DNA of 12,167 nucleotides from an uncultured Aquificales bacterium (lineage in GTDB: Bacteria; Thermosulfidibacterota; Thermosulfidibacteria; Thermosulfidibacterales; Thermosulfidibacteraceae). Location: assembly GCA_964453345.1 (NCBI GenBank), contig CAYVOC010000004.1, positions 56,519 through 68,685 of the forward strand, written 5' to 3'. Shown here piece by piece: positions 1 to 11,230 of the stretch. Below the pieces are notes generated by a model that worked only from the letters and a program-made list of their open reading frames with translations, was not told the DNA's origin and made no database searches. Position 1 is the first letter of the stretch. Every line of letters starts with the position of its first letter. Both the position numbers and the translations under genes were made by a program.

Positions 1-773
1 GAAAAAACCGTCTCCCACACAGGATAGATGACGACCATCATAACAAACCAGGGAGACAGATTCGCCCTGTTGACCAACAAAAGCCCCACAACAGCCACAA
101 GATATCCGAGAAAATAGGCTCCCCCGTCCCCCAAAAAGATGGATCCCCACGGATAATTCCAGACAAAAAAGCCCAAAACCGCAAAGAAAGCAGACAAACT
201 CAGAAACAACCCCCCGCTGTGATTGACCAGATAGGCAACAACCGCATATGTCGCAAAGGTTATCAAAGCAACCCCGGAACAGAGGCCGTTGAATCCATCT
301 ATGATGTTGAAGGCCTGAGAAACACCGGCTATGGCAAAGGCCGTAAAGGCGAAGGAAAAGAGGCCTGAAGCGAAAAGAGGATCAAGAAGGGATATGCCCA
401 CCCTCCTCAACTCAACGGGCAATAGAGCACAGGCAAGCATCCCGGAAACAAAGGAGGCCGCCAACCTGCCTTTGGGACTCACATTCCTTGTGACGTCCTC
501 CAGAAAACCCGCTACAAAGACCGGGATCCCGGCAAAAACAACCCTTCCATACTCGCCTGCAAAGGGCTTGCCAGAAGCGAAATACAGAAGGCAAACAACC
601 ATCATGGAAGCAAAAATGGCAAGTCCGCCTATCCTTGGCACCTCACCCACATGGAATTTCTGAACGCCCTCAGCCTCATCATAAATGCCCTTCTCCCGGG
701 CAAGCCTTATCAACACACCACACACAACCAGGCTTACAAAAAAGGAGAGGATCAGGGAATAAAGCGCTTTCAC
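1..773 (-). CDS. MraY/WecA-family (glycosyltransferase family 4) polyprenyl-phosphate N-acetylhexosamine-1-phosphate transferase, 3' end outside window
   Basis: Not in the ORF track, so translated by hand. GTG at 773 directly follows the GTPase stop (TAA-GTG). It reads MKALYSLILSFFVSLVVCG...QKFHVGEVPRIGGL...GFLEDV...AFNIIDGFNGL...WNYPWGSIFLGDGGAYFLG...IYPVWETVF. It has many TM segments and the family motifs PRxGG, NxxDGxNGL and FLGDxG. The frame is open to the window edge. Confidence 0.9.
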   Translation of the reverse strand, partial: MKALYSLILSFFVSLVVCGVLIRLAREKGIYDEAEGVQKFHVGEVPRIGGLAIFASMMVVCLLYFASGKPFAGEYGRVVFAGIPVFVAGFLEDVTRNVSPKGRLAASFVSGMLACALLPVELRRVGISLLDPLFASGLFSFAFTAFAIAGVSQAFNIIDGFNGLCSGVALITFATYAVVAYLVNHSGGLFLSLSAFFAVLGFFVWNYPWGSIFLGDGGAYFLGYLVAVVGLLLVNRANLSPWFVMMVVIYPVWETVF

Positions 774-1316
774 TTACAACCCCTTATCACCCTTAAGATA
801 GCCCAAAACATCGTCCAGAAGCTCCAATAGAACCCCCTTCACACTCTCCCTGTCCGTAGCTATGCAGGGCACCACCTTAACGCTGCTGTCAAGATCGAGA
901 ATGCTCCTCACATACTCAGGGGGCCATGCATCGGGAAGATCCTGCTTGTTGGCAGCAACAATATACGGAACCTGAAGCCTGCTGTAAAAATAATCTATAA
1001 TGGGGCGGGCCTCCTTTATCCTCTCCACCTTTGCGCTATCAACGAGAACCACCACGCCAAGGGCACCCTCGCAGAGTATATCCCACATAAAATCAAACCT
1101 CACCTGTCCAGGAGTTCCAAAAAGGTAAAGGATTATATCATCCTCCAGGGTTATTTTCCCGTAATCCATGGCGACTGTGGTATGTCCCTTCTCCTTAAGC
1201 TCCTCCGAACTTGTGACCACCTCCTCTGTGGTAACAACCTCTATCTCGCTTATGGTCTGGATAAAGGTTGTCTTCCCTGCCGCATAGGGACCTGTCACCA
1301 GTATCTTCAATTTCAT
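774..1316 (-). CDS. MglA-family small Ras-like GTPase (TTVAMD/GTPGQ type, CvnD-like), 180 aa
   Basis: Motifs are G1 GPYAAGKT, switch [10 protein letters not shown]3 GTPGQVRF, G4 NKQD and G5 CIAT. Start moved from 1421 to the ATG at 1316 (MKLKILVTG), which forms an ATGA overlap with the upstream stop at 1313-1315. Confidence 0.9.
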
Positions 1317-2029
1317 TTCATACCTCTCAGTCTCTTTATGAGCCTGGCAACCAGCTTCACAGAAAGGAAATCTGCAAGTCGGAAGGCCCTGCGGGGCGCC
1401 CTCTGGATCAGGCCTGCACACAAAAAGCCGAAGAGTCTCTGCTTCACCTTGATGGGTGGAAGGCCCGTGTATTCTATAATCTCAGCCACCGTTCTTTTGC
1501 CATCAACAGCATCAAAGACCCTGTAATCATCGGCATCAAACTGGACCTGTGAAAGCATCTCATCGGCACCCTTGACCTTTCTAAATACCATCTCATCGGA
1601 GGATATTTTTCTTTCAAGAATTTCGGGATCGCTTATCCTTTTGGACTCACTAATAATGATTCTTTCGGTGCTCATGAGAAACTCTTTCACATCGTCATCC
1701 ACAAAGAAGTTGGCCTTTTCAAAGGAAAAGGTCCCCTTCGTTGAGGAGACAAAGGCCGCTATGGAGGATTTGATCCTGGCAATAAGTCTTGAAAACAAAG
1801 CGGCATCCTTAGTTTTAAGAGCGGTGACGAAATCCTTCACCAGCTTCTGCGTAAAAAGATCGTATGCTCTGTCAGCCCTGAAGGCAAAGGCGATTTTGCC
1901 GTCAACAAAATACATACCTATGTAGCCATTCCCCACATCCACAACCAGAATACCGGTTTCTCTATTGTCCCTGAGGATTTGAAGAAGCTCTATGGGGTGC
2001 AGATGCTCTAACTCACCCTTTATAGCCAT
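1313..2029 (-). CDS. DUF4388/PATAN-domain protein with C-terminal winged-helix-like region, 238 aa
   Basis: The N-terminus [30 protein letters not shown]...[12 protein letters not shown] and the later GTFSFE match the DUF4388 pattern. The C-terminal [38 protein letters not shown] is wHTH-like. AAGGTGAG SD lies upstream. It sits between roadblock and GTPase genes. Confidence 0.82.
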
Positions 2030-2033
2030 AAAC

Positions 2034-2339
2034 TCACCTTACAAGCATCAGTATAGAAAGACCCCCCGCCAAAGGCACGCCGATTATCCTGCCCCTGTCG
2101 GTCTCCACGATCACCTTCTTCAGGTCGCTACCCCTCAAATCCTTAGCCACCCTCTTCGCCAAGGAGACGAAAGAGGCCCCCATGGCGGCAGCCCTTTCCT
2201 GATCCTTCCCGTCAACCATGGAATAAACGGGAAAACCATCGGAGGTCACAACAACCACAGCCTCCACCTCTCTATGGACGGAAAGAACCCTCTCAACGGC
2301 AAGCTTCAGTCTTTCCTCGTTCAATTTGACAGCCGACAT
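2034..2339 (-). CDS. Roadblock/LC7-domain (MglB-like) protein, 101 aa
   Basis: [14 protein letters not shown]...[41 protein letters not shown] is a typical roadblock pattern. ATG at 2339 overlaps the pilM stop (TGATG). An alternative TTG lies at 2342. Confidence 0.88.
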
Positions 2340-3385
2340 CAACCTGCCTCCGAAAAGATCAAACTTAGGGTCCCTCCCAGCGCCAAAGACAGGGGATTGG
2401 AAATCTCCTCAACGAACACCCTATCGAGCTTCCTGGAAAGGCCAAACCTTCTTAGGGGCATCATGGGCTCAACATCGGGAACTGCAGTAAACTCCCTCAG
2501 CAGGCCCGGCATATAGGGATTCAAAGCAGCCCCACCGGTTATGTATATCTTATCAACCACAAAATCCCCCAACCTCGATCCCACCACCATAAGCTCAGAG
2601 GATATAACAGAGCACAGCTCTCTGGTCGCATCAGAGAGGATCACCTCATCAACCCCACCGCTGCGCAGCCTGTCAAGGGCCTCCTCAACCGAAATTCCCG
2701 CAGCCTCGGCAACCCTCCTCGCAATCATCCCCTCGTTGGCGTCGGACAAACACTGGCCCAGAACCATGTTCCCCTCTTTTACAAATACCACATTGGTGTT
2801 GGTCTCGCCAATATCCAGAAGTATCACGGCATTGTGATCCGCAACCTCGGGATAGTTGAACAAAAACAGATTTGCAAGGGCCGTGAAGGCCGTATCAACC
2901 ACCGCCACCTCAGCTCCCATGCTGGAAAGGATCCTCCTGCATCTCTCAAGAACATCTTTTTTGGTTATCACGCAAAGAGCCATATTTCTATCCCCATGGG
3001 CGAAGACGTGTATATCGTAGGATATCTCATCAAGGGCGAAGGGGATCCTCGTTCTCAACTCCTCCTCAACAAATCCCCTGACATTTGCCACATCCTTCGG
3101 AAGCTCTATAGCGTGCACCATAACAAGCCTTCCCGGCATCACAAAGGAGACCTTTGTCACCTTCTCCGGGATATACCTCCAGACCGTCTCCATAATTCTC
3201 ACAAAGGAGACGCTATCCAGCACCTCAACAACACTGGACACAGGTTCAGGATAATCAATGGTGGTAGCATACACCACAACGGGCCTTTTCCTTTCCGGTT
3301 CAACCACCACAAGCTTCACACCAGAAGTCCCAAAATCTATACCCGCAACCCTCTCCCTTTTTCTGAAAAAATCAACGATGGCCAC
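2339..3385 (-). CDS. pilM: Type IV pilus assembly protein PilM family (actin/FtsA-like ATPase fold), about 348 aa
   Basis: Phosphate-1 [12 protein letters not shown], phosphate-2 [11 protein letters not shown], adenosine IYITGGAA and PilM-type [11 protein letters not shown] are present. Preferred start is the GTG at 3385 ([10 protein letters not shown]) with GGGGGG 5 nt upstream. The TTG at 3403 is an alternative. Confidence 0.82.
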
Positions 3386-4826
3386 AGCTGCCCCCCATCG
3401 CAAATTCCAGCAGATAATTACAAAGTTTCGGGGATTCCTTCAAAAGTGACGCCATTCTATCAAAGGACTCCCTCAAGCTCTCCCTGTAGCACACCCCGGA
3501 TGGCCTTCCGCCTATGGCCCGGACAAAGCCCTCTCTAACCCCATCGTTCTCAAATATCCCGTGGATATGGGTTCCGCACACATTCCCGACAACCGCCCCG
3601 TCCACTCCCTCATCGGTGCGGAACAAGGCCAGATCCTTGGGCACCTCAACCCTTCCGGAGTGGATCCTGTATCCGCAGATCCTTCCCCTAAGCCAGGCCG
3701 GAGCCCGATCCGTCGCCTCTACCTCAACCCCTCCAACCATCTTTTCCTCACAGTAGACCACCTCACCGGGGATAAGGGCAAGTCCCCTTTCACTTCCCCC
3801 ACCTTCCCGACCCGTGGGGTCAACCAGCCTCTCAAGCAGCATGTGGAAGCCTCCGCATATCCCCACAACCGCAACTCCCTCCTCAGCCTTCTTGACAATG
3901 GCCCTATCCAGCCCCCTATCCCTTAGCCACCTGAGATCATCAAGGACCCTCCTGCTTCCCGGAAGTATAACCGCCGCCACACCCTCAAGATCCTCAGGGG
4001 ACACACACCACCTCACCCCCACCCCCTCAACGGAAAAGGGAGCCAGATCGGAAAAGTTGGAGACCTTGGGATACCTGATAACTCCAATGACCGGATGCCC
4101 GAACTTCCCCCGTATATCCAGCGAATCCTCAGGCGGAATAACATGCTCCACATAGGGCAAAACGGCCAGAACCGGTATCCCCGTTCTCTCCTCCAGAAAA
4201 TCCAGTCCCGGCTTCAGTATATCCAGAAGCCCCCTGAACTTATTGATAACAATCCCTTTCAGCAATCCCCTCTCTTTCTCATCCAGCAGCTCATAGGTGC
4301 CCACCACCTGAGCAAACACCCCTCCCCTGTCTATATCGGCCACAAGCAAGGCCTCACCGCCAAAATCCCTGGCAAGAGCCATATTGGTGTAATCCCTATC
4401 CTTAAGATTCACCTCAACGGGGCTTCCCGCCCCTTCCGCCACCACAACCTCATACTCATCCAGCAGCTCGCCCAAAACCCTGTAGGCAACAGGCCTCACC
4501 CGGTCCCTGTATTCGTCAAAGGTGGCCGAATGGACAAAGCCCTCGGATCTTCCAAGAACTATAAGCTCACTTTTCGCATCCCCCACAGGCTTCAAAAGAA
4601 CCGGATTGAACCTCACCGAGGGTAGCTCATCACAAGCAAGGGCCTGAACATACTGGGCCCACGCCATCTCACCATCGGCTACGGCAACGGCGTTAAGGGA
4701 CATGTTCTGGGCCTTGAAGGGAGCCACCTTCACCCCGAGCCTTCTGAAGAACCTGCAAATGGCTGTTGCCAGAAAACTCTTTCCCGCCCCGGACGATGTG
4801 CCAACTATAAGAAGCAGCCTCCCCAC
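3372..4826 (-). CDS. cobQ: Cobyric acid synthase CobQ (adenosylcobyric acid synthase, glutamine-hydrolysing)
   Basis: Motifs [46 protein letters not shown] and INKFRG are present, with the GATase Cys in GICGG and His in HIHGIF. GTG 4826 is preferred over TTG 4835 because it gives the usual short N-terminus before GT and lies downstream of the predicted promoter. Confidence 0.93.
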
Positions 4827-4835
4827 GGTCTTCAA

Positions 4836-4866
4836 ACTTTACAGGAACAGAGAACGGATGTAAACT
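4836..4866. promoter_or_regulatory. Overlapping divergent sigma70-type promoters (cobQ operon / acyl-CoA synthetase)
   Basis: Plus strand: TTTACA(4838-4843)-N17-TAAACT(4861-4866). Minus strand: TTTACA(4864-4859)-N17-TAAAGT(4841-4836). GGAGG SD at 4883-4887 serves the ATG at 4893. Confidence 0.65.
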
Positions 4867-4892
4867 GGTAAAAAAACAACCTGGAGGTAGAA

Positions 4893-6974
4893 ATGGGCTT
4901 TTCAATAAACAGCTTTTTCAAACCCAAAAGCGTTGCGGTTGTGGGAGCAACCCCCTCTGAGAAGAAGGTGGGTTACGCCATAATGCGCAATTTAGTAAAG
5001 CACGGATACACTGGCAAAATATATCCCGTAAACCCCAAAAGGGACGAGATTCTGGGAATCAAAGTCGTAAAGAACCTGCAGAATCTACCGGAAGCCCCGG
5101 AGCTTGCCATACTGGCGGTCCCTCCGAGGGCATGTATAGAGGCCGTTGATACCTTGGGCAGCATGGGAACAAAAGCCTTCCTTGTCATCTCCGCCGGATT
5201 CAAGGAGTCCGGGGAAGAGGGCAAGAGGCTTGAAAAGACCCTCGTGGAAACAGCCCATAAATATGGGGCGAGAATAACAGGGCCGAACTGCCTCGGCATA
5301 ATAGACACCCACACACCTCTGAATGCCACCTTCGCAACCGTTATGCCACCGACCGGGAATGTGGCTGTCGTTTCCCAGTCCGGAGCGTTACTCAGCGCCT
5401 TTCTGGATTGGTCTATCGATGAAGGAGTTGGCTTCTCAAAGGTGATAAGCTTAGGCAACCAGTGCGATCTGGACGAGGCAGACTTCATAGAATTCTTAGG
5501 GGAGGATCCTGAAACGGATGTGATACTCGTATACATGGAAGGGGTGGCCAACGGGACCAAGCTCATAGAGAAGATCCAGAAGGCAAGTTCGCAAAAGCCC
5601 ATACTGATTCTAAAGGTGGGAAGAACAGAGGCCGGATCCAGGGCCTCCTCCTCCCACACCGGATCCATAACCGGATCCGATGAGGCATACACAGCAGCGT
5701 TCAGAAAGGGAGGAGCCATAAGGGCGAAGACCATGGAGGATCTCTTCATCGCCGCCAAAATGTTCTCCCGCTACAGACCTGCACCTGTGGGGAATATCGC
5801 CATCCTAACCAACGCAGGGGGCCCCGGCATAATGGCAGCGGATGCAATAGAAGAGGCCGGACTTAAACTCGCCAGCCTTAAAAAAGAGACCAAAGAAAAG
5901 CTCTCCCGCGTCCTGCCCCCAGCAGCCGCCCTGAACAACCCAGTTGACGTCATAGGCGACGCAGACGCCTCAAGATACAGAAACGCCCTTAAGATACTCT
6001 CAGAAGCCGAAGAGGTTGACAGCATTCTTGTTTTGCTAACTCCACAGCTTATGACCGAAATAACCGAAACCGCAAGGACCATTTCCCGGTATAAACACCA
6101 GAAACCCACCATCTGTGCATTCATGGGCAAACACAGGGTAAAGGAGGGAGTAGAAATACTGAAATCCTCCGGTGTGCCCAACTACGACTTCCCGGAACAG
6201 GCCGTTGAAGCCCTGAGATTTACAGAGTCCTACCTTAAGGCGAAGGGAGGCTATCCCCTGAGGGCCGATGTCCATGTGGATCAGAAGCAGATAGACGAAG
6301 CCAGAAAAATCCTTGAAAAGGCAAAAGACCAACAAAAGGTTCTCGACGAATACATCGCCATGGAACTGGTTGAAGCCTTCGGCATACCCACCCCCAAAAG
6401 ATCCCTCGCCAGAAATCTGGATGAGGCCATAAAAGCAGCAGACAGCATAGGATACCCTGTGGTGTTAAAGATATCCTCTCCGGAAATCCTCCACAAAAGC
6501 GATGTTGGGGGGGTCATCACAGACGTAAAGAGTCCTGAAGAGTTGGAAAAAGCCTTTAGAGAGCTTATGGCAAGGGCCTCTAAGATAACGGAGAAAATCA
6601 GAGGGGTTATGATAGAAGAAATGGCACCTCAAGGGGTGGATCTTATCATCGGATTCAAAAGGGACGACACCTTTGGGCCAGTGGTAATCGTGGGACTTGG
6701 AGGCATTTATGTGGAGATTCTGAAGGACGTTGCCCACGGGATAGCCCCTATTTCCGTCATCGAAGCCACCGGCATGATAAGAAGCCTCAAGAGCCTCCCC
6801 ATACTCGAAGGAGCAAGGGGAAGAAGCGCCGTAAACATCCCCCTGCTGGCCGAAACCATATCACGATTCTCCCTGCTGGCCCAGGAGCTTACAGATCTGA
6901 AGGAAGGAGAGGTCAATCCCCTAAGGGCAACGCCCCAGGGAATCATCGCCCTCGACGCAAGATTCATCCTGTAA
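4893..6974 (+). CDS. ADP-forming acetate/acyl-CoA synthetase, fused alpha-beta subunits, 693 aa
   Basis: CoA-binding region [31 protein letters not shown], phospho-His SHTGS, TNAGGPG and NNPVDV are present. The ATP-grasp domain has [22 protein letters not shown] and ends ALDARF. There is no GNAT domain. GGAGG SD. Confidence 0.93.
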
Positions 6975-7721: not shown

Positions 7722-8177
7722 CTAAGGCTCATAAACATCACCCACGTAAATCTTTATATCCAAACCTTTATCCTCTATCATAGCTCTTATCAAGCCGCAC
7801 CCTGCCACCAACTCATCCTCCACCCACACCCTGTTAAGGCCGCAACAGGGACTCTTCTCCTTTAAGAAAAGCCTTTTAACCCCTGCAAGCCCTGCGATTT
7901 TAAGGGCATACTCACATCCTTTGATAAGCCTTTCTGTTACATCTTCACCCTTCTCGTTCACTATTCTGGCTTTACCTTTAAGAACTGCCCTTGCATCTCC
8001 CCCGTAGAACTGGGCTGGAGGCCTTGGCGTGGTGAGTCCTGCAAGCTGTTCGGGGCAAAAGGGAACAGGGCTGAAGCGCTCCAGGAAGCGCTCCAGCCCC
8101 TTCATCCGTTTATGCCCGCCATCATACCTGCAGGGGATTCCCAAAAGACAGAGGCTCACCCCCACAGGTTCCTTCAC
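7722..8177 (-). CDS. DUF523/YbbK family (TudS thiouracil desulfidase-like) Fe-S protein, 151 aa
   Basis: Motifs [34 protein letters not shown] and [12 protein letters not shown] start overlaps the clpB stop (GTGA, 8174-8177). Confidence 0.9.
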
Positions 8178-11100
8178 AGCTTCACCACCTCAAAGGTGAA
8201 CTCACCGTCCTTGGCGTCCACAATCACCTTGTGCCCTTCGGTGAGCTTGCCCTCAAGTATCAGCTCGGAAATCTTATTTTCAATGTTCTTCTGTATGGCA
8301 CGCTTGAGGGGCCTTGCACCCATGAGCGGGTCAAAGCCTTCCTCAGCCAGAAGCTCCTTGGCAGCATCGGTAAGCTCTATGTCCATCTTCTGATCCTGCA
8401 GTCTCTTTCTTAGCTGCTCTATCTGCAGATCCACTATCTGGAGTATCTGCTCCTTGGTGAGCGGATGGAAGACCACTATTTCATCTATCCTGTTGAGGAA
8501 CTCGGGCCTGAAGTAGCTCTTCACCGTATCCAGTATCCTCTTCTTCGCCACCTCAAAGGCTTCCTTGAACTTCTCAGGATCCCTCATTATCTCAGGGTTG
8601 TTCATCATATCCCTGAGGTATTCGGAACCCAGATTGCTGGTCATGATTATCACGGTGTTCCTGAAGGAGACCGTTCTCCCATGGGAATCCGTGAGTCTTC
8701 CATCGTCCAGCACCTGCAGGAAGAGGTCAAAGACCCTGGGATGCGCCTTCTCTATCTCATCAAGCAGTATCACGGAATAGGGCCTGCGCCTGACGGCCTC
8801 CGTAAGCTTTCCTCCCTCCTCGTAGCCCACATATCCGGGAGGCGCACCGATGAGCTTGGCAACAGAATGCTCCTCCTTGAACTCGCTCATATCAAGCCTG
8901 ATAAGGGCATCCTCGCTTCCAAAGAGGAACTCCGCCAAGGCCTTAGCAAGCTCGGTCTTACCCACACCGGTGGGGCCAAGAAAGAGGAAGCTGCCCAAGG
9001 GCCTTCTTGGATCGGACACACCAGCCCTCGCCCTTCTGATAGCCTCGCACACAGCCTTTATGGCCTCATCCTGCCCTATAACCCTCCTGTGGAGGTATTC
9101 TTCCATCTTAAGCAGCTTCTTCTTCTCCTCCTCCATCATCTTGGAGGCAGGCACACCGCTCCACTCGGAAACCACCTTGGCCACATCCTCCTCGTCCACC
9201 ACTATGTCGGAGGCAACACCCTCTTCCTTTTTCTTCTTGAGAAGCTTCAATTCTTTTTCCAGCTTGGCCTTCTCAATCTTCAGCTCCGTCTCCTTATCTA
9301 TATCCTCAGCCTCTTCAGCCTTCTTTATCTCCTCATCCAGCTTGGATATCCTGTTCTCAAGCTCCTTTATCTTCTCCTCTATATCGGCACTCTTCTTCAC
9401 GGCAGAAATGGACTTCTCAAGCTGCTCCTTCTCCTTCTTCAGCTCCTCTTTCTTCGCCTCGTCCTTCTCCTCGGCAATTCTCTTCTCCAGCTCCTTTATC
9501 TTCTCCTCCAGCTCCTTGGCGGATTCCCTTTGATAAATCACCTCCAATTTCTTCTTGGCTGCAGCCTGGTCCAGGGCATCTATGGCCTTGTCAGGATTGC
9601 GCCTGTCCTGGATATACCTTCCGGTAAGCTTTACCGCAGCCTCTATAGCCTCATCGGATATGCGCACGCCATGATGCTTCTCATACTTGGGACGAAGCCC
9701 TTTCAGTATCTCCACTGTGGCTTCAGCGGAAGGCTCGCTCACAAATATGGGCTGGAAGCGCCTCTCAAGGGCCGGATCCTTCTCAATATACTTCCTGTAT
9801 TCGTCCAAGGTGGTGGCGCCTATCACCTGGAACTCGCCCCTTGCAAGGGCGGGCTTCAGTATGTTCGCCGCATCCATGGCACCTTCAGCCTTGCCGGCTC
9901 CCACCACATTGTGGATCTCGTCAATGAAGAGTATCACATCGTCCCTTTCCTTAACCTCGTCCACAATGGCCTTGAGCCTCTCCTCAAACTCGCCCCTGTA
10001 CTTGGTTCCCGCAAGCAGGGCGCCCATATCCAGCGAGAGAATCCTTTTATTCTTCAGGCTCTCCGGAACATTGCCCTTCACTATCTCCTGGGCAAGTCCC
10101 TCCACAATGGCGGTCTTACCAACACCGGCTTCACCAACCAGAACGGGGTTGTTCTTCTGGCGCCTGGAGAGAACCTCAATGACCTGCCTTATCTCCTTGT
10201 CCCTGCCTATAACAGGATCCAGCTTGCCCTGTCTCGCAAGCTCGGTTAAATCAACAGCATACTTTTCCAATGCTCCCTTTTCCTCTTCCGCCATCTCTTC
10301 CCTTATTCCCATGGCTTTACCCTCCTTAGAAATTGCTTTCGTAAGCTGATTCAGTATATTGCCCCCAACCGTATCGGGCTGGGAGACAAGAGCATCCACT
10401 ATATCGGCAACCCCCACCTCCTCCTTGCCGGAAGACGCCCTTTCAAGCACCCTCTCCACGAAGTAGGAGTAGCCAATCTTGTCAAACTTCTCGTTGAACA
10501 GAAGCCTTAAAACCTCGCGGATTATCCTTCTCGGGTCAATACCGGAGTTGACAAGCTGTTGCAGAGAATTGGATATCTTCTCGCCTATATCGGTGAGATA
10601 GACAATCAGCTCGTCCACAGAGTCCTCAGGGATCCTGTATCTTGCCGCAGCCTCCCTCACATAGTCCACAAAGGCCTTGGGCACCTCAACGACCTCTTCC
10701 CTCAGGCTCCAGCGGACGCTGGGACGCTCAAAGTCGCTGAAGAACTCCTCCAAAAGTCCGGAGAATATATCCTCACCGAAGAACTCCTCTATGAGGCTCC
10801 TCCTTCTACCCCTCACAGGCACCCACCTGTTCACCTTCACCGGAACCTTATCTTTAACTCTTTCACCCTTCATGCTTCTGTATACAGAGTCATCTATCTG
10901 AAGCAGAAGGGCTTTGAGCACATCATCGGCGAAATCCATGCCGTATTTGCCCCTCAGCTCATCCCTGGTCTTCATAATAGCCTGCCTGTAGCTCTCCTCA
11001 ATGGAGGAAAGCTGGGAGTAAAGATTATCAAGGGCCTTCTCCACCTCGGCTCTGGCGGAGGCAGGATCTATTCCCTTTTTCTCAAGCCATTTATAAAAGG

Positions 11101-11230
11101 GATTCCCCTCCCTTTTGGCAAAAAGCGCCCAGACAATGTGGTCCGTATCAATGAGGCTCTCCTTTCTATCCCTTGCCCTCTTTTCGGCAAGCTCAAAAAG
11201 CCTCTTAGCCTTATCGTTCAGCTTCACCAT
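8174..11230 (-). CDS. clpB: Class I Hsp100/Clp AAA+ chaperone, ClpB-like, with enlarged N-domain, 1018 aa
   Basis: NBD1 has [29 protein letters not shown] and LERRFQ. A coiled-coil M domain follows. NBD2 has [31 protein letters not shown] and GARPL. AAGGAGGAG SD precedes ATG 11230. No [LIV]GF ClpP loop. Family call is firm, subfamily is not. Confidence 0.88.
10310..10327 (-). promoter_or_regulatory. Putative internal ribosome-binding site and in-frame start (Met307) inside the Hsp100 gene
   Basis: Minus strand AAGGAGG(10327-10321)-N8-ATG(10312), in frame, at the N-domain/NBD1 boundary. Confidence 0.6.

Follow-up and report, generated by a model that had tools for sequence, protein, structure and literature searches.

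A PilM paralogue in a tight operon with Roadblock, PATAN and MglA-family GTPase genes in Thermosulfidibacterales

The DNA analysed here (the window, 12,167 nucleotides in full) comes from an uncultured bacterium of the Thermosulfidibacteraceae. It carries four tightly joined genes on the minus strand, running from position 3385 to position 774, whose domains were called with Pfam and NCBIfam. The first gene (2339..3385) begins with GTG and encodes a PilM-like ATPase of 348 aa, called class C below (PilM_2, 68.2 bits); an alternative TTG start at 3403 would add 6 aa. Then come a Roadblock/LC7 protein of MglB/CvnB-like type (2034..2339, 101 aa; Robl_LC7, 53.8 bits), a protein with a DUF4388 (PATAN) domain and a winged helix (1313..2029, 238 aa; DUF4388 at residues 4-131, 45.9 bits), and an MglA-family small GTPase of the GTPGQ type (774..1316, 180 aa; ATP_bind_1, 86.8 bits). 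The PilM-like stop and the Roadblock start have one base in common (TGATG), a 4-nt gap separates Roadblock from DUF4388 (TGA-GTTT-ATG), and DUF4388 and the GTPase overlap by 4 nt (ATGA). Shine-Dalgarno sequences of the GGAGG type lie 5' of the Roadblock, DUF4388 and GTPase starts. The coordinates and junctions of the four-gene module agree with the preliminary description of this DNA, and the strand is minus. Inspection of the translations also bore out its statement that no INLLP-like N-terminus is found on the Roadblock, DUF4388 or GTPase protein.

The tight gene string is longer than four genes, since cobQ (cobyric acid synthase; 3372..4835, minus strand; NF001989, 484.6 bits) runs from 4835 to 3372 and shares 14 nt with the start of the PilM-like gene, and a gene for a WecA/MraY-like GT4 glycosyl-phosphate transferase (3..773, minus strand; Glycos_transf_4, 105.4 bits) starts at 773, immediately 3' of the GTPase stop (TAAGTG). 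Though cobQ lies in the same transcription string, it is probably functionally unrelated to the module. It is also found 5' of the PilM-like gene in two other genomes (G003, G005), though not in genera g2 and g4. The genes 3' of the GTPase differ in the five other genomes with the same gene order (listed below), so that GT4 is not conserved with the module. Since the junctions of cobQ and GT4, surely unrelated genes, are equally tight, close spacing alone is little proof of a shared function. The same two neighbours favour a reading in which the PilM paralogue and the other three genes have no functional link and are neighbours by descent or by operon packing in a 1.5-Mb genome.

Positions 1-5200 contain 8 terminator-like sites, no excess over the 7.3 expected from shuffled sequence, and a promoter scan gave no informative signal. 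The stretch is present in 8 DNA runs from 5 studies, 5 of the runs being labelled hydrothermal vent metagenome, and no RNA run is listed as containing it. Scanning metagenomes with A1, the PilM alignment at genus level, returned one locus, a fragment of 1.8 kb with 97% identity to the window; in the wider alignment A3, conservation is too low throughout for such a scan.

The GTPase matches Arf (49.8 bits) and TIGR00231 small_GTP (46.4 bits, cut-off 42.5), and the solved chain nearest to its profile is MglA of T. thermophilus (3t12, E 2.5e-13). Its identity to 15 relatives in Aquificota-labelled genome records is 53-78%. Its motifs read GPYAAGKT (G1), HTTV with no arginine (G2), GTPGQ (G3) and NKQD (G4); all four are invariant in 16 rows, with Thr for Asp in G3 (TxxGQ). 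The hallmarks of group 1, which are an arginine finger by the G2 threonine and TVPGQ, are absent. By the criteria given in the portion of PMC4316618 drawn on here, HTTV and GTPGQ place the protein in groups 2-5. The preliminary description had named the right family, MglA, and the protein belongs to the GTPGQ kind without an arginine finger rather than to the kind that sets polarity in Myxococcus.

The Roadblock protein is the sole match to Robl_LC7 (cut-off 23) in its genome at E <= 0.01. The solved chains nearest to its profile are 7f8m (E 3e-28), 9jue_D and the conservon protein CvnB5 (3leq, E 7e-14), and MglB reaches only E 1.6e-3. A D-G pair is invariant in the Roadblock alignment (A4), and the window's copy is without the C-terminal helix of about 25 aa seen in Aquificaceae copies. 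The protein is presumed to regulate the GTPase, as a GAP or as a GEF platform; its gene lies two genes upstream of the GTPase in the same operon.

The DUF4388 protein (Pfam cut-off 25), presumed to be an adaptor, has a helical insertion, a winged helix and a conserved basic C-terminal helix; in its AF2 model, helices spanning 61-95 are inserted between two strands, 45-52 and 100-105. On the Kyte-Doolittle scale the hydrophobic moment of the C-terminal helix is unremarkable. Foldseek returned no PDB match at E <= 0.001; chain C of GATOR1 gave the best of the matches that fell short of that threshold (E 0.026-0.042, TMq 0.32-0.33). A separate list of matches (VIA) is taken up by the winged helix and barely covers the N-terminal domain. 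The seeming resemblance of PATAN plus winged helix to the longin plus winged-helix subunits of GTPase regulators is treated as a lead and not as a result. The winged helix was also considered as a relative of DUF742 (CvnC) and this was rejected, as there was no match at E <= 0.01 with the whole protein or at E <= 1 with the C-terminal 99 aa.

The Roadblock-PATAN-GTPase trio is a conserved cassette. Of 32 loci taken from Aquificota-labelled genome records, 25 have it, always in the order Roadblock, PATAN/winged helix, GTPase, and it is mostly headed by a membrane protein, without PilM. The head is a 236-242-aa membrane protein in Aquificaceae, a small membrane protein with a 320-598-aa protein in Hydrogenothermaceae, and a two-TM, HAMP-like 'TM300' protein in families f2 and f3. 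No PilM-like gene stands beside 22 of the 29 loci having DUF4388 and a GTPase, a count that includes short contigs such as L041 and L044.

A PilM-like gene joined to the cassette was found only in the window's order, the kin of Thermosulfidibacter. Class C PilM and the GTPase are both present in 12 of 18 genomes of the order, and they lie within 3.3 kb of each other in 10 of the 12; the exceptions are G005, where they do not, and G013, whose contigs are too short to tell. Six genomes (the window's own, G000, with G002, G003, G008, G004 and G007) have the colinear operon PilM-like, Roadblock, DUF4388, GTPase, in which adjoining genes overlap or stand apart by no more than 5 nt. They represent three genera with different flanking genes, so the synteny, whose conservation the preliminary description had said to check, is not peculiar to the window's genome. 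The PilM-like gene stands beside the cassette in two further arrangements, in two further families. It is convergent with TM-Roadblock-DUF4388-GTPase-V4R in G012 and G016, and it lies about 3.2 kb from TM-DUF4388 in G009 and G011. In G004 a TM-HAMP gene lies 5' of the PilM-like gene, so the apparent replacement of the membrane head by PilM is not clean.

Several observations speak against an obligate link. Besides the 22 loci free of PilM, four genomes (G010, G014, G015, G017) retain class C PilM beside a V4R gene, and in these no GTPase was found with the A5 profile, which matched 12 other genomes, and no PATAN protein with the A2 profile, a search that had no positive control. Both this paralogue without the cassette and the cassette without PilM suit the absence of any functional link, as does the fact that every adjacent case comes from one order, so that the cases are not independent. 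Against it, the four-gene block stays constant while its flanks change between genera, the adjacency outlasts two rearrangements, one to convergent genes and one to a spacing of about 3.2 kb, and class C PilM and the GTPase are jointly missing in G001 (95% complete) and G006 (71% complete). Mere neighbourhood is an improbable explanation in our judgement.

The genomes with V4R suggest another partner. V4R, which has the TRAPPC3 fold, or some other ligand-binding input could be the true partner of the PilM paralogue, with the cassette as a downstream or optional output and V4R lost from the window's family, f1. Every family f3 genome with the PilM-like gene has V4R convergent to it, with or without the cassette (G012, G016, G014, G015, G017). 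In G011 and G012 V4R lies 3' of the GTPase, and in G016 the two form a single 339-aa fusion protein (ATP_bind_1 plus V4R). However, a tblastn search of the window's genome with the G012 V4R as query gave no homologue at E <= 1e-3, V4R is absent from the six colinear operons, and convergent neighbours have no shared transcript. We consider this reading very unlikely.

The remaining evidence concerns what kind of PilM the first gene encodes. The AF2 model of the PilM-like protein (pLDDT 89.9, pTM 0.90) has a predicted actin-like ASKHA fold with the PilM/FtsA type of subdomain layout. Its ten best Foldseek matches are all PilM entries (5eq6, 5eoy, 5eox, 5eou, 3jc8, 2ych; E 1e-21 to 2e-25, TMq 0.67-0.79), with FtsA behind at E about 1e-17. 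It carries the acidic and glycine nucleotide motifs GIDFG, LLDIGE and ITGGAA, which we take to be the phosphate 1, phosphate 2 and adenosine motifs, and across 15 class C rows G193 and T283-G284-G285 do not vary. The window's protein passes the Pfam PilM_2 cut-off of 27, whereas with TIGR01175 pilM it scores 61.3 bits against a cut-off of 133. Class C is a small family, with about 11 representatives at 230 bits or more and a canonical PilM plateau near 200 bits. In G014 the PilM-like frame is interrupted by an in-frame TAA.

In the window's genome pilNOPQ lies on a separate contig (G000:C9), and its PilN starts with an INLLP-like peptide (MRQRRIIRINLM...). The gene directly 5' of pilN there is a 240-aa stub, and this gene is reduced across family f1. 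In genus g1 the stub is 234-254 aa long, and both phosphate motifs (1 and 2), the adenosine motif and the IIB helices are missing from it. It matched no Pfam family at E <= 1, aligned with PilM by hhalign over 141 columns in register at a probability of 23% (E 9e-4), and gave a single tblastn match (E 5e-4), so a relationship to PilM is weakly suggested. In the sister families a pilM lies directly 5' of pilN (G009, G011, G012, G013, G014, G015), and families f2 and f3 have both this pilN-linked PilM and a class C copy. A separate canonical pilMNOPQ, which the preliminary description had said to look for, was therefore found in the sister families, and in the window's own genome its place is taken by pilNOPQ headed by the stub. 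Family f1 also has a second full-length PilM paralogue, class B, which in the window's genome is on contig C8. PilB, PilT and PilC of this genome are encoded on contigs G000:C2, C17 and C24. The order thus holds three classes of PilM paralogue: pilN-linked, AtuA-linked and GTPase-linked.

A PilM tree of 47 rows was built with MreB as outgroup and with the interrupted G014 row left out. Eleven pilN-linked PilMs of the order and ten canonical PilMs form a clade with 98/98 support, and all module-linked rows fall outside it. The module-linked PilMs are not one clade, and the rows of genus g1 sit on long branches. In AU tests, constraining classes C and D together gave p 0.041, and constraining the seven family f1 rows together gave p 0.096, which is not rejected. 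By this phylogeny the window's protein is a paralogue of the pilN-linked PilM, which fits the repurposed copy that the preliminary description gave as one of two possibilities. Of the three outcomes named beforehand as counting against the proposal, two were not found, as the adjacency is not unique to this genome and the protein does not group with ordinary PilM.

A paralogue could still do the ordinary work. The PilM-like protein might be the lineage's working pilus PilM, moved from pilNOPQ to a place beside a GTPase that regulates piliation, as MglA does in Myxococcus through SgmX, and it would then bind the N-terminus of PilN and also PilB/PilC. The reduction of the pre-pilN gene in f1, with the g1 stub lacking nucleotide motifs and IIB helices, is consistent with this, because a full-length ATP-binding PilM, if one is needed, must then come from elsewhere. 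PilN keeps its INL(M) tail, the closest folds are PilM:PilN structures (2ych, TMq 0.79; 5eou, 0.73-0.74), and class C proteins outside g1 score as ordinary PilM does (PilM_2, 118-161 bits). One class C orthologue is annotated as 'pilus assembly protein PilM' in one source. On the other side stand the coexistence of class C with a pilN-linked PilM in f2 and f3 and the position of class C outside the 98/98 clade. Class B, which is full-length, could serve PilN in f1 equally well, and the stub is probably still PilN's partner, since it overlaps pilN by 4 nt and is kept in three genomes of g1. G001 has pilN and pilO and no class C PilM, an argument that is weak because the genome is 95% complete. 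Altogether we find a relocated working PilM unlikely.

We give an even chance to the reading that the locus is a small-GTPase signalling cassette in which the PilM paralogue is a dedicated part and not the pilus-alignment PilM. The contacts, the direction of the signal and the target that follow are what we infer for such a cassette. Its first position is filled by the PilM paralogue in the window's family and by a membrane protein in most Aquificota-labelled records. The paralogue, an ATP-binding actin-fold protein with the PilM-type subdomain layout, would sit at the inner membrane by gripping a bitopic membrane protein, PilN or perhaps another, at its short cytoplasmic tail. Placed there, it could be a docking platform or an effector for the GTPase, whose nucleotide state would be set by a Roadblock dimer. 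The PATAN plus winged-helix protein would form the bridge to a target machine, and the type IV pilus motor seems the likeliest candidate for it, given that in Synechocystis PilB1 and PilC are partners of PATAN domains in binding (bioRxiv 10.1101/2021.06.11.447907, in the part drawn on here). As output, a membrane machine would be switched on or placed. The direct action of the GTPase/GAP pair and the PATAN protein on the actin-fold protein, and a role in positioning or polarity, both put forward in the preliminary description, are likewise conjectural.

A more specific and more doubtful version, which we think unlikely, is that PilM has been split in family f1, with a nucleotide-free stub staying with PilN and a full ATP-binding paralogue wired, as first gene of the operon, to the GTPase, so that GTP loading of the MglA-type protein would directly gate its recruitment, as an actin-fold platform, to the base of the pilus or some other machine of the envelope. 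If true, this would be a case of a bacterial small GTPase controlling an actin-family protein through dedicated, co-encoded Roadblock and longin-like regulators.

To our knowledge, the targets of MglA-type GTPases outside Myxococcus are largely unknown, and hardly any effector is known for groups 2-5. In this operon the GTPase, the Roadblock protein and the PATAN adaptor are tied to a PilM-fold ATPase as their one defined candidate partner. Four small soluble proteins from a thermophile offer a direct route to testing signalling from a GTPase to an actin fold, and the three PilM classes and the reduced g1 stub bear on the evolution and re-use of the pilus alignment complex. The lineage is narrow and, except for Thermosulfidibacter, uncultured. 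A PilM gene in an MglA operon was not described in titles and abstracts among the matches listed, with subscription journals and supplements lying outside the search, and no publication was found on the combination of DUF4388, Roadblock and GTPase or on a PilM-like protein with a small GTPase. We regard the locus as a real, conserved variant of the known MglA/MglB/PATAN theme in which the PilM link is new and the mechanism is inferred.

The closest published setting is MglA/MglB of groups 2-5 (Wuichet and Sogaard-Andersen 2015, PMC4316618). In the portion of that paper drawn on here, which cites Makarova 2006, the co-occurrence of MglA, MglB and PATAN is already published, groups 2-5 have GTPGQ and no arginine finger, group 5 is reported in Aquificae, and neighbourhoods are variable for groups 1, 4 and 5. 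Shared with the window are GTPGQ in G3, threonine in place of the G2 arginine finger, a Roadblock partner with the D-G pair and occasional PATAN neighbours. Unlike the groups as described there, the present loci have a fixed order of Roadblock, PATAN/winged helix and GTPase (25 of 32 loci) and, in one order, a PilM paralogue. The word pilM occurs 0 times in that text, a count that leaves aside supplementary table S2, which might list such neighbours.

The actinobacterial conservon CvnA-B-C-D likewise comprises a head gene followed by genes for a Roadblock protein, a small protein of winged-helix type and a GTPase, four in all, and its GTPase likewise matches ATP_bind_1 and is of the GTPGQ type (PMC4316618, same portion). 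The window's Roadblock profile matches CvnB5 (3leq, E 7e-14) far better than MglB. Unlike the conservon, the window has a PilM-fold ATPase as head and no CvnA-type histidine kinase, with no kinase domain in the window's genes, and its third protein is DUF4388 plus winged helix and not DUF742. The phylum differs as well.

The type IVa PilM proteins (2ych, 5eou, 3jc8) share fold, subdomain layout and nucleotide motifs with the window's protein. They differ in that the window's gene is not beside pilN, and its protein lies outside their clade and below the TIGR01175 cut-off; class C also coexists with pilN-linked copies in the sister families. In Helicobacter pylori, PilMNO has been co-opted into a flagellar cage (PMC10823254, in the part used here), which is a non-pilus-assembly job for a PilM homologue such as is proposed here. 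In H. pylori the gene remains part of a pilMNO operon and its product acts together with PilN and PilO, and no GTPase is involved according to that part of the source.

In the focal adhesions of Myxococcus, MglA binds the actin-like MreB, as described in the part of PMC4508894 used here, and this pairing of a Ras-like MglA GTPase with an actin-fold protein is common to both systems, with direct contact being proposed for ours. Unlike the window's PilM paralogue, MreB forms filaments and is not encoded in the mglA operon, and the Myxococcus MglA belongs to group 1, with an arginine finger. Lastly, in the PatA-type regulators of cyanobacteria PATAN serves as the output domain and binds the motor of the pilus (PilB1, PilC; bioRxiv 10.1101/2021.06.11.447907, same part). 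There it goes with a receiver domain and chemotaxis-like systems, whereas the window's PATAN is joined to a winged helix and sits with a GTPase.

On the minus strand of the window lies an operon of four genes: a PilM-like gene (3385-2339, GTG start, 348 aa), a Roadblock gene (2339-2034, 101 aa), a DUF4388 gene (2029-1313, 238 aa) and a small-GTPase gene (1316-774, 180 aa). The preliminary description had assigned these four domains, which were borne out by Pfam and NCBIfam, and the junctions it gave proved exact: TGATG between the PilM-like and Roadblock genes, a 4-nt gap between Roadblock and DUF4388, and ATGA between DUF4388 and the GTPase. Upstream, cobQ (4835-3372, minus) runs 14 nt past the start of the PilM-like gene, and downstream the start of a GT4 transferase gene (from 773 onward, minus) abuts the GTPase stop. 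The source genome (G000; 1.5 Mb, 64 contigs) is 99.9% complete, and the window is its segment C4:56519-68685. Elsewhere in the window, a ClpB gene (8174-11230, minus) encodes 1018 aa, with a Clp_N match at residues 15-67 and the ClpB model match beginning only at residue 293; the roughly 170 extra residues of this N-terminal region matched no Pfam family at E <= 0.1.

The PilM-like protein scores above the threshold for Pfam PilM_2 (68 bits) and under that for TIGR01175 (61 bits against 133). It keeps the nucleotide-binding motifs, and the solved structures nearest to its AF2 model (pLDDT 89.9) are PilM, with FtsA behind. The model of the DUF4388, or PATAN, protein (pLDDT 86) has a beta/alpha core with a helical insertion, followed by a winged helix at residues 140-213. 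Its conserved, basic C-terminal helix (residues 216-238, window 1313-1384) is modeled with low confidence and ends in an invariant Gly in all 10 aligned orthologues; this helix could serve as a tail that docks to a partner or binds membrane.

Sequence comparison across the window's order, represented by 18 genomes, indicates that the window's PilM-like protein is a paralogue and that the order has at least three PilM classes. Class A lies immediately 5' of pilN in the sister families f2 and f3, with a reduced form in one genome, G008; in the window's genus, g1, it is a stub of 234-254 aa lacking the nucleotide motifs. The stub gene of the source genome (G000:C9:37671-38393, equivalent to L004:2049-2771, minus, 240 aa) overlaps the pilN start by 4 nt, and the gene is kept in three genomes of g1. 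This 240-aa protein, in which no Pfam family was found, gave a weak alignment with PilM (hhalign probability 23%, E 9e-4) and may be a PilM reduced to a GspL-like form. Class B is flanked in every case by a nitrilase-like gene on one side and an AtuA-family gene on the other; it occurs in six genomes of the window's family, f1 (G000:C8:20761-23841, and loci L033, L037, L084, L085 and L086), and is a full-length PilM-like protein (347 aa, PilM_2 73.7 bits). Class C is the window's own kind. With the pilN-linked copy being a stub, class C might be the working pilus PilM of f1, a reading that we consider unlikely but keep in view; the tree bears on it from the other side. In that tree (IQ-TREE, LG+C20+F+G4 by PMSF, 47 rows, MreB outgroup, interrupted G014 row excluded), class A and 10 canonical PilMs form a clade with support 98/98, and all rows of classes B, C and D fall outside it. 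Class C is not resolved as a single clade in the same tree; the AU test gave p 0.041 with C and D constrained together and p 0.096 for the seven class C rows of f1. The g1 rows of class C are long branches, and their PilM_2 score is 68 bits versus 118-161 bits in other class C proteins. A word-index search with the window's protein returned only two close relatives (49% and 44% identity, the next at 28%), and in an exhaustive profile search about 11 representatives scored higher than the plateau formed by ordinary PilMs.

The class C gene is present in 16 of the 18 genomes, and the GTPase in 12, each time together with class C. Six genomes (G000, G002 and G003 of g1, plus G008, G004 and G007) have the PilM-like, Roadblock, DUF4388 and GTPase genes colinear, successive genes overlapping or spaced by at most 5 nt, amid differing flanking genes. 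We regard the domains, the operon and its recurrence as established. The PilM-like gene is convergent with the cassette in G012 and G016, lies about 3.2 kb from TM-DUF4388 genes in G009 and G011, and is on a separate contig from the GTPase in G005; G013 holds both on contigs too short to show their spacing. That the neighborhood reflects inherited packing only is, given both the varied arrangements and the persistence of the four-gene block amid changing flanks, distinctly improbable in our judgment. Neither gene was found in G001 (95% complete) or G006 (71% complete). Four further genomes (G010, G014, G015 and G017) retain class C adjoining a V4R gene, and neither a GTPase nor a PATAN gene was found in them, which counts against an obligate tie between PilM and GTPase. 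In G014 the class C frame (L022:7739-8812) is broken by an in-frame TAA into pieces of 222 and 130 aa, which could reflect gene decay or an error in sequencing. An alternative reading takes V4R, not the GTPase, as the real partner of the PilM paralogue; we hold it to be very unlikely. Genomes of f2 have two neighboring PilM-like genes, class C and its sister class D (L030:6217-9384; L035:1899-5079), arranged divergently near TM-DUF4388-GTPase genes.

The cassette of Roadblock, DUF4388 and GTPase is a conserved unit in its own right. A DUF4388-protein profile run against one-genome-per-species contigs gave 32 loci, whose record labels include Aquificaceae, Hydrogenothermaceae, Persephonella, an Aquifex aeolicus MAG and Thermosulfidibacter, among others. 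Scored by tblastn with proteins of the window and its relatives, 25 loci have the order Roadblock-DUF4388-GTPase, 29 have DUF4388 and GTPase, and seven additionally have a PilM-like gene, all seven from the window's order. What precedes the cassette varies, which fits the idea of a core unit whose heads can be exchanged. In f2 and f3 it is the gene of a two-TM, HAMP-like protein (about 300 aa) and in Aquificaceae that of a membrane protein of 236-242 aa; in Hydrogenothermaceae a small membrane protein is encoded there together with a protein of 320-598 aa. A V4R gene lies 3' of the GTPase in f2 and f3 (L040:6136-6612; L091:3579-4055), and in G016 V4R is fused to it (L061:903-1922, 339 aa, ATP_bind_1 + V4R). 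These loci link a GTPase with V4R in bacteria; the V4R/TRAPPC3 fold has been treated in Asgard archaea (PMC10933270). In an alignment of Roadblock proteins, those of genera g1 and g2, whose operons are headed by the PilM paralogue, stop right behind the last strand (window copy 2034-2339), missing a C-terminal helix of about 25 aa that is present in Aquificaceae, Hydrogenothermaceae and f3; in G008 a short version of the helix is present.

The source genome also encodes pilNOPQ, flagellins and five T2SSE matches (pilus and secretion ATPases). A type II secretion or pilus-like cluster with pseudopilin-like genes (G000:C45:86-10034) includes a 557-aa T2SSE-family ATPase and a 349-aa protein with a C-terminal PilN domain (a GspL-like fusion), as well as, as read from sequence, a putative 404-aa GspF-like platform gene and a 663-aa secretin-like gene.

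We infer every contact between the operon proteins. On the reading we think most likely, the locus would be a GTPGQ-type MglA switch whose usual membrane head is exchanged for a PilM paralogue; in G004 the paralogue would join the membrane head instead of replacing it. By analogy with PilM:PilN, a peptide bound in the paralogue's groove may keep that protein at the membrane, where the GTPase would use it as platform or effector. The nucleotide state of the GTPase would be controlled by the Roadblock dimer, and the PATAN/winged-helix protein would link the switch to a target, plausibly the motor of the pilus.

Cassette GTPases are 53-78% identical between lineages and have GTPGQ in G3 and Thr-Thr in G2, described by Wuichet and Sogaard-Andersen as marks of MglA groups 2-5, which they report to lack an arginine finger, unlike group 1 of Myxococcus and Thermus (PMC4316618). 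The Roadblock profile hits conservon CvnB5 (3leq) at E 7e-14, a far stronger match than the one to MglB at E 1.6e-3. The same genome has a second, differing MglA-type cassette (G000:C2:55950-58834, equivalent to L089:951-3835, minus). Its products are a 323-aa PATAN/DUF4388 protein, a 187-aa protein with a weak resemblance to Roadblock (Robl_LC7 E 0.052), a 260-aa TM-HAMP protein and a 191-aa Ras/Arf-like GTPase. The G3 motif of this GTPase, TVAGQ, resembles the TVPGQ of MglA group 1. There is reported precedent for MglA binding the actin-like MreB (PMC4508894), for PATAN domains binding PilB1 and PilC (bioRxiv 10.1101/2021.06.11.447907), and for co-option of PilM/N/O by a flagellar motor (PMC10823254). 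No PilM gene inside an MglA/MglB/PATAN operon was found in the open-access literature searched. Co-occurrence of MglA, MglB and PATAN was already known (PMC4316618).
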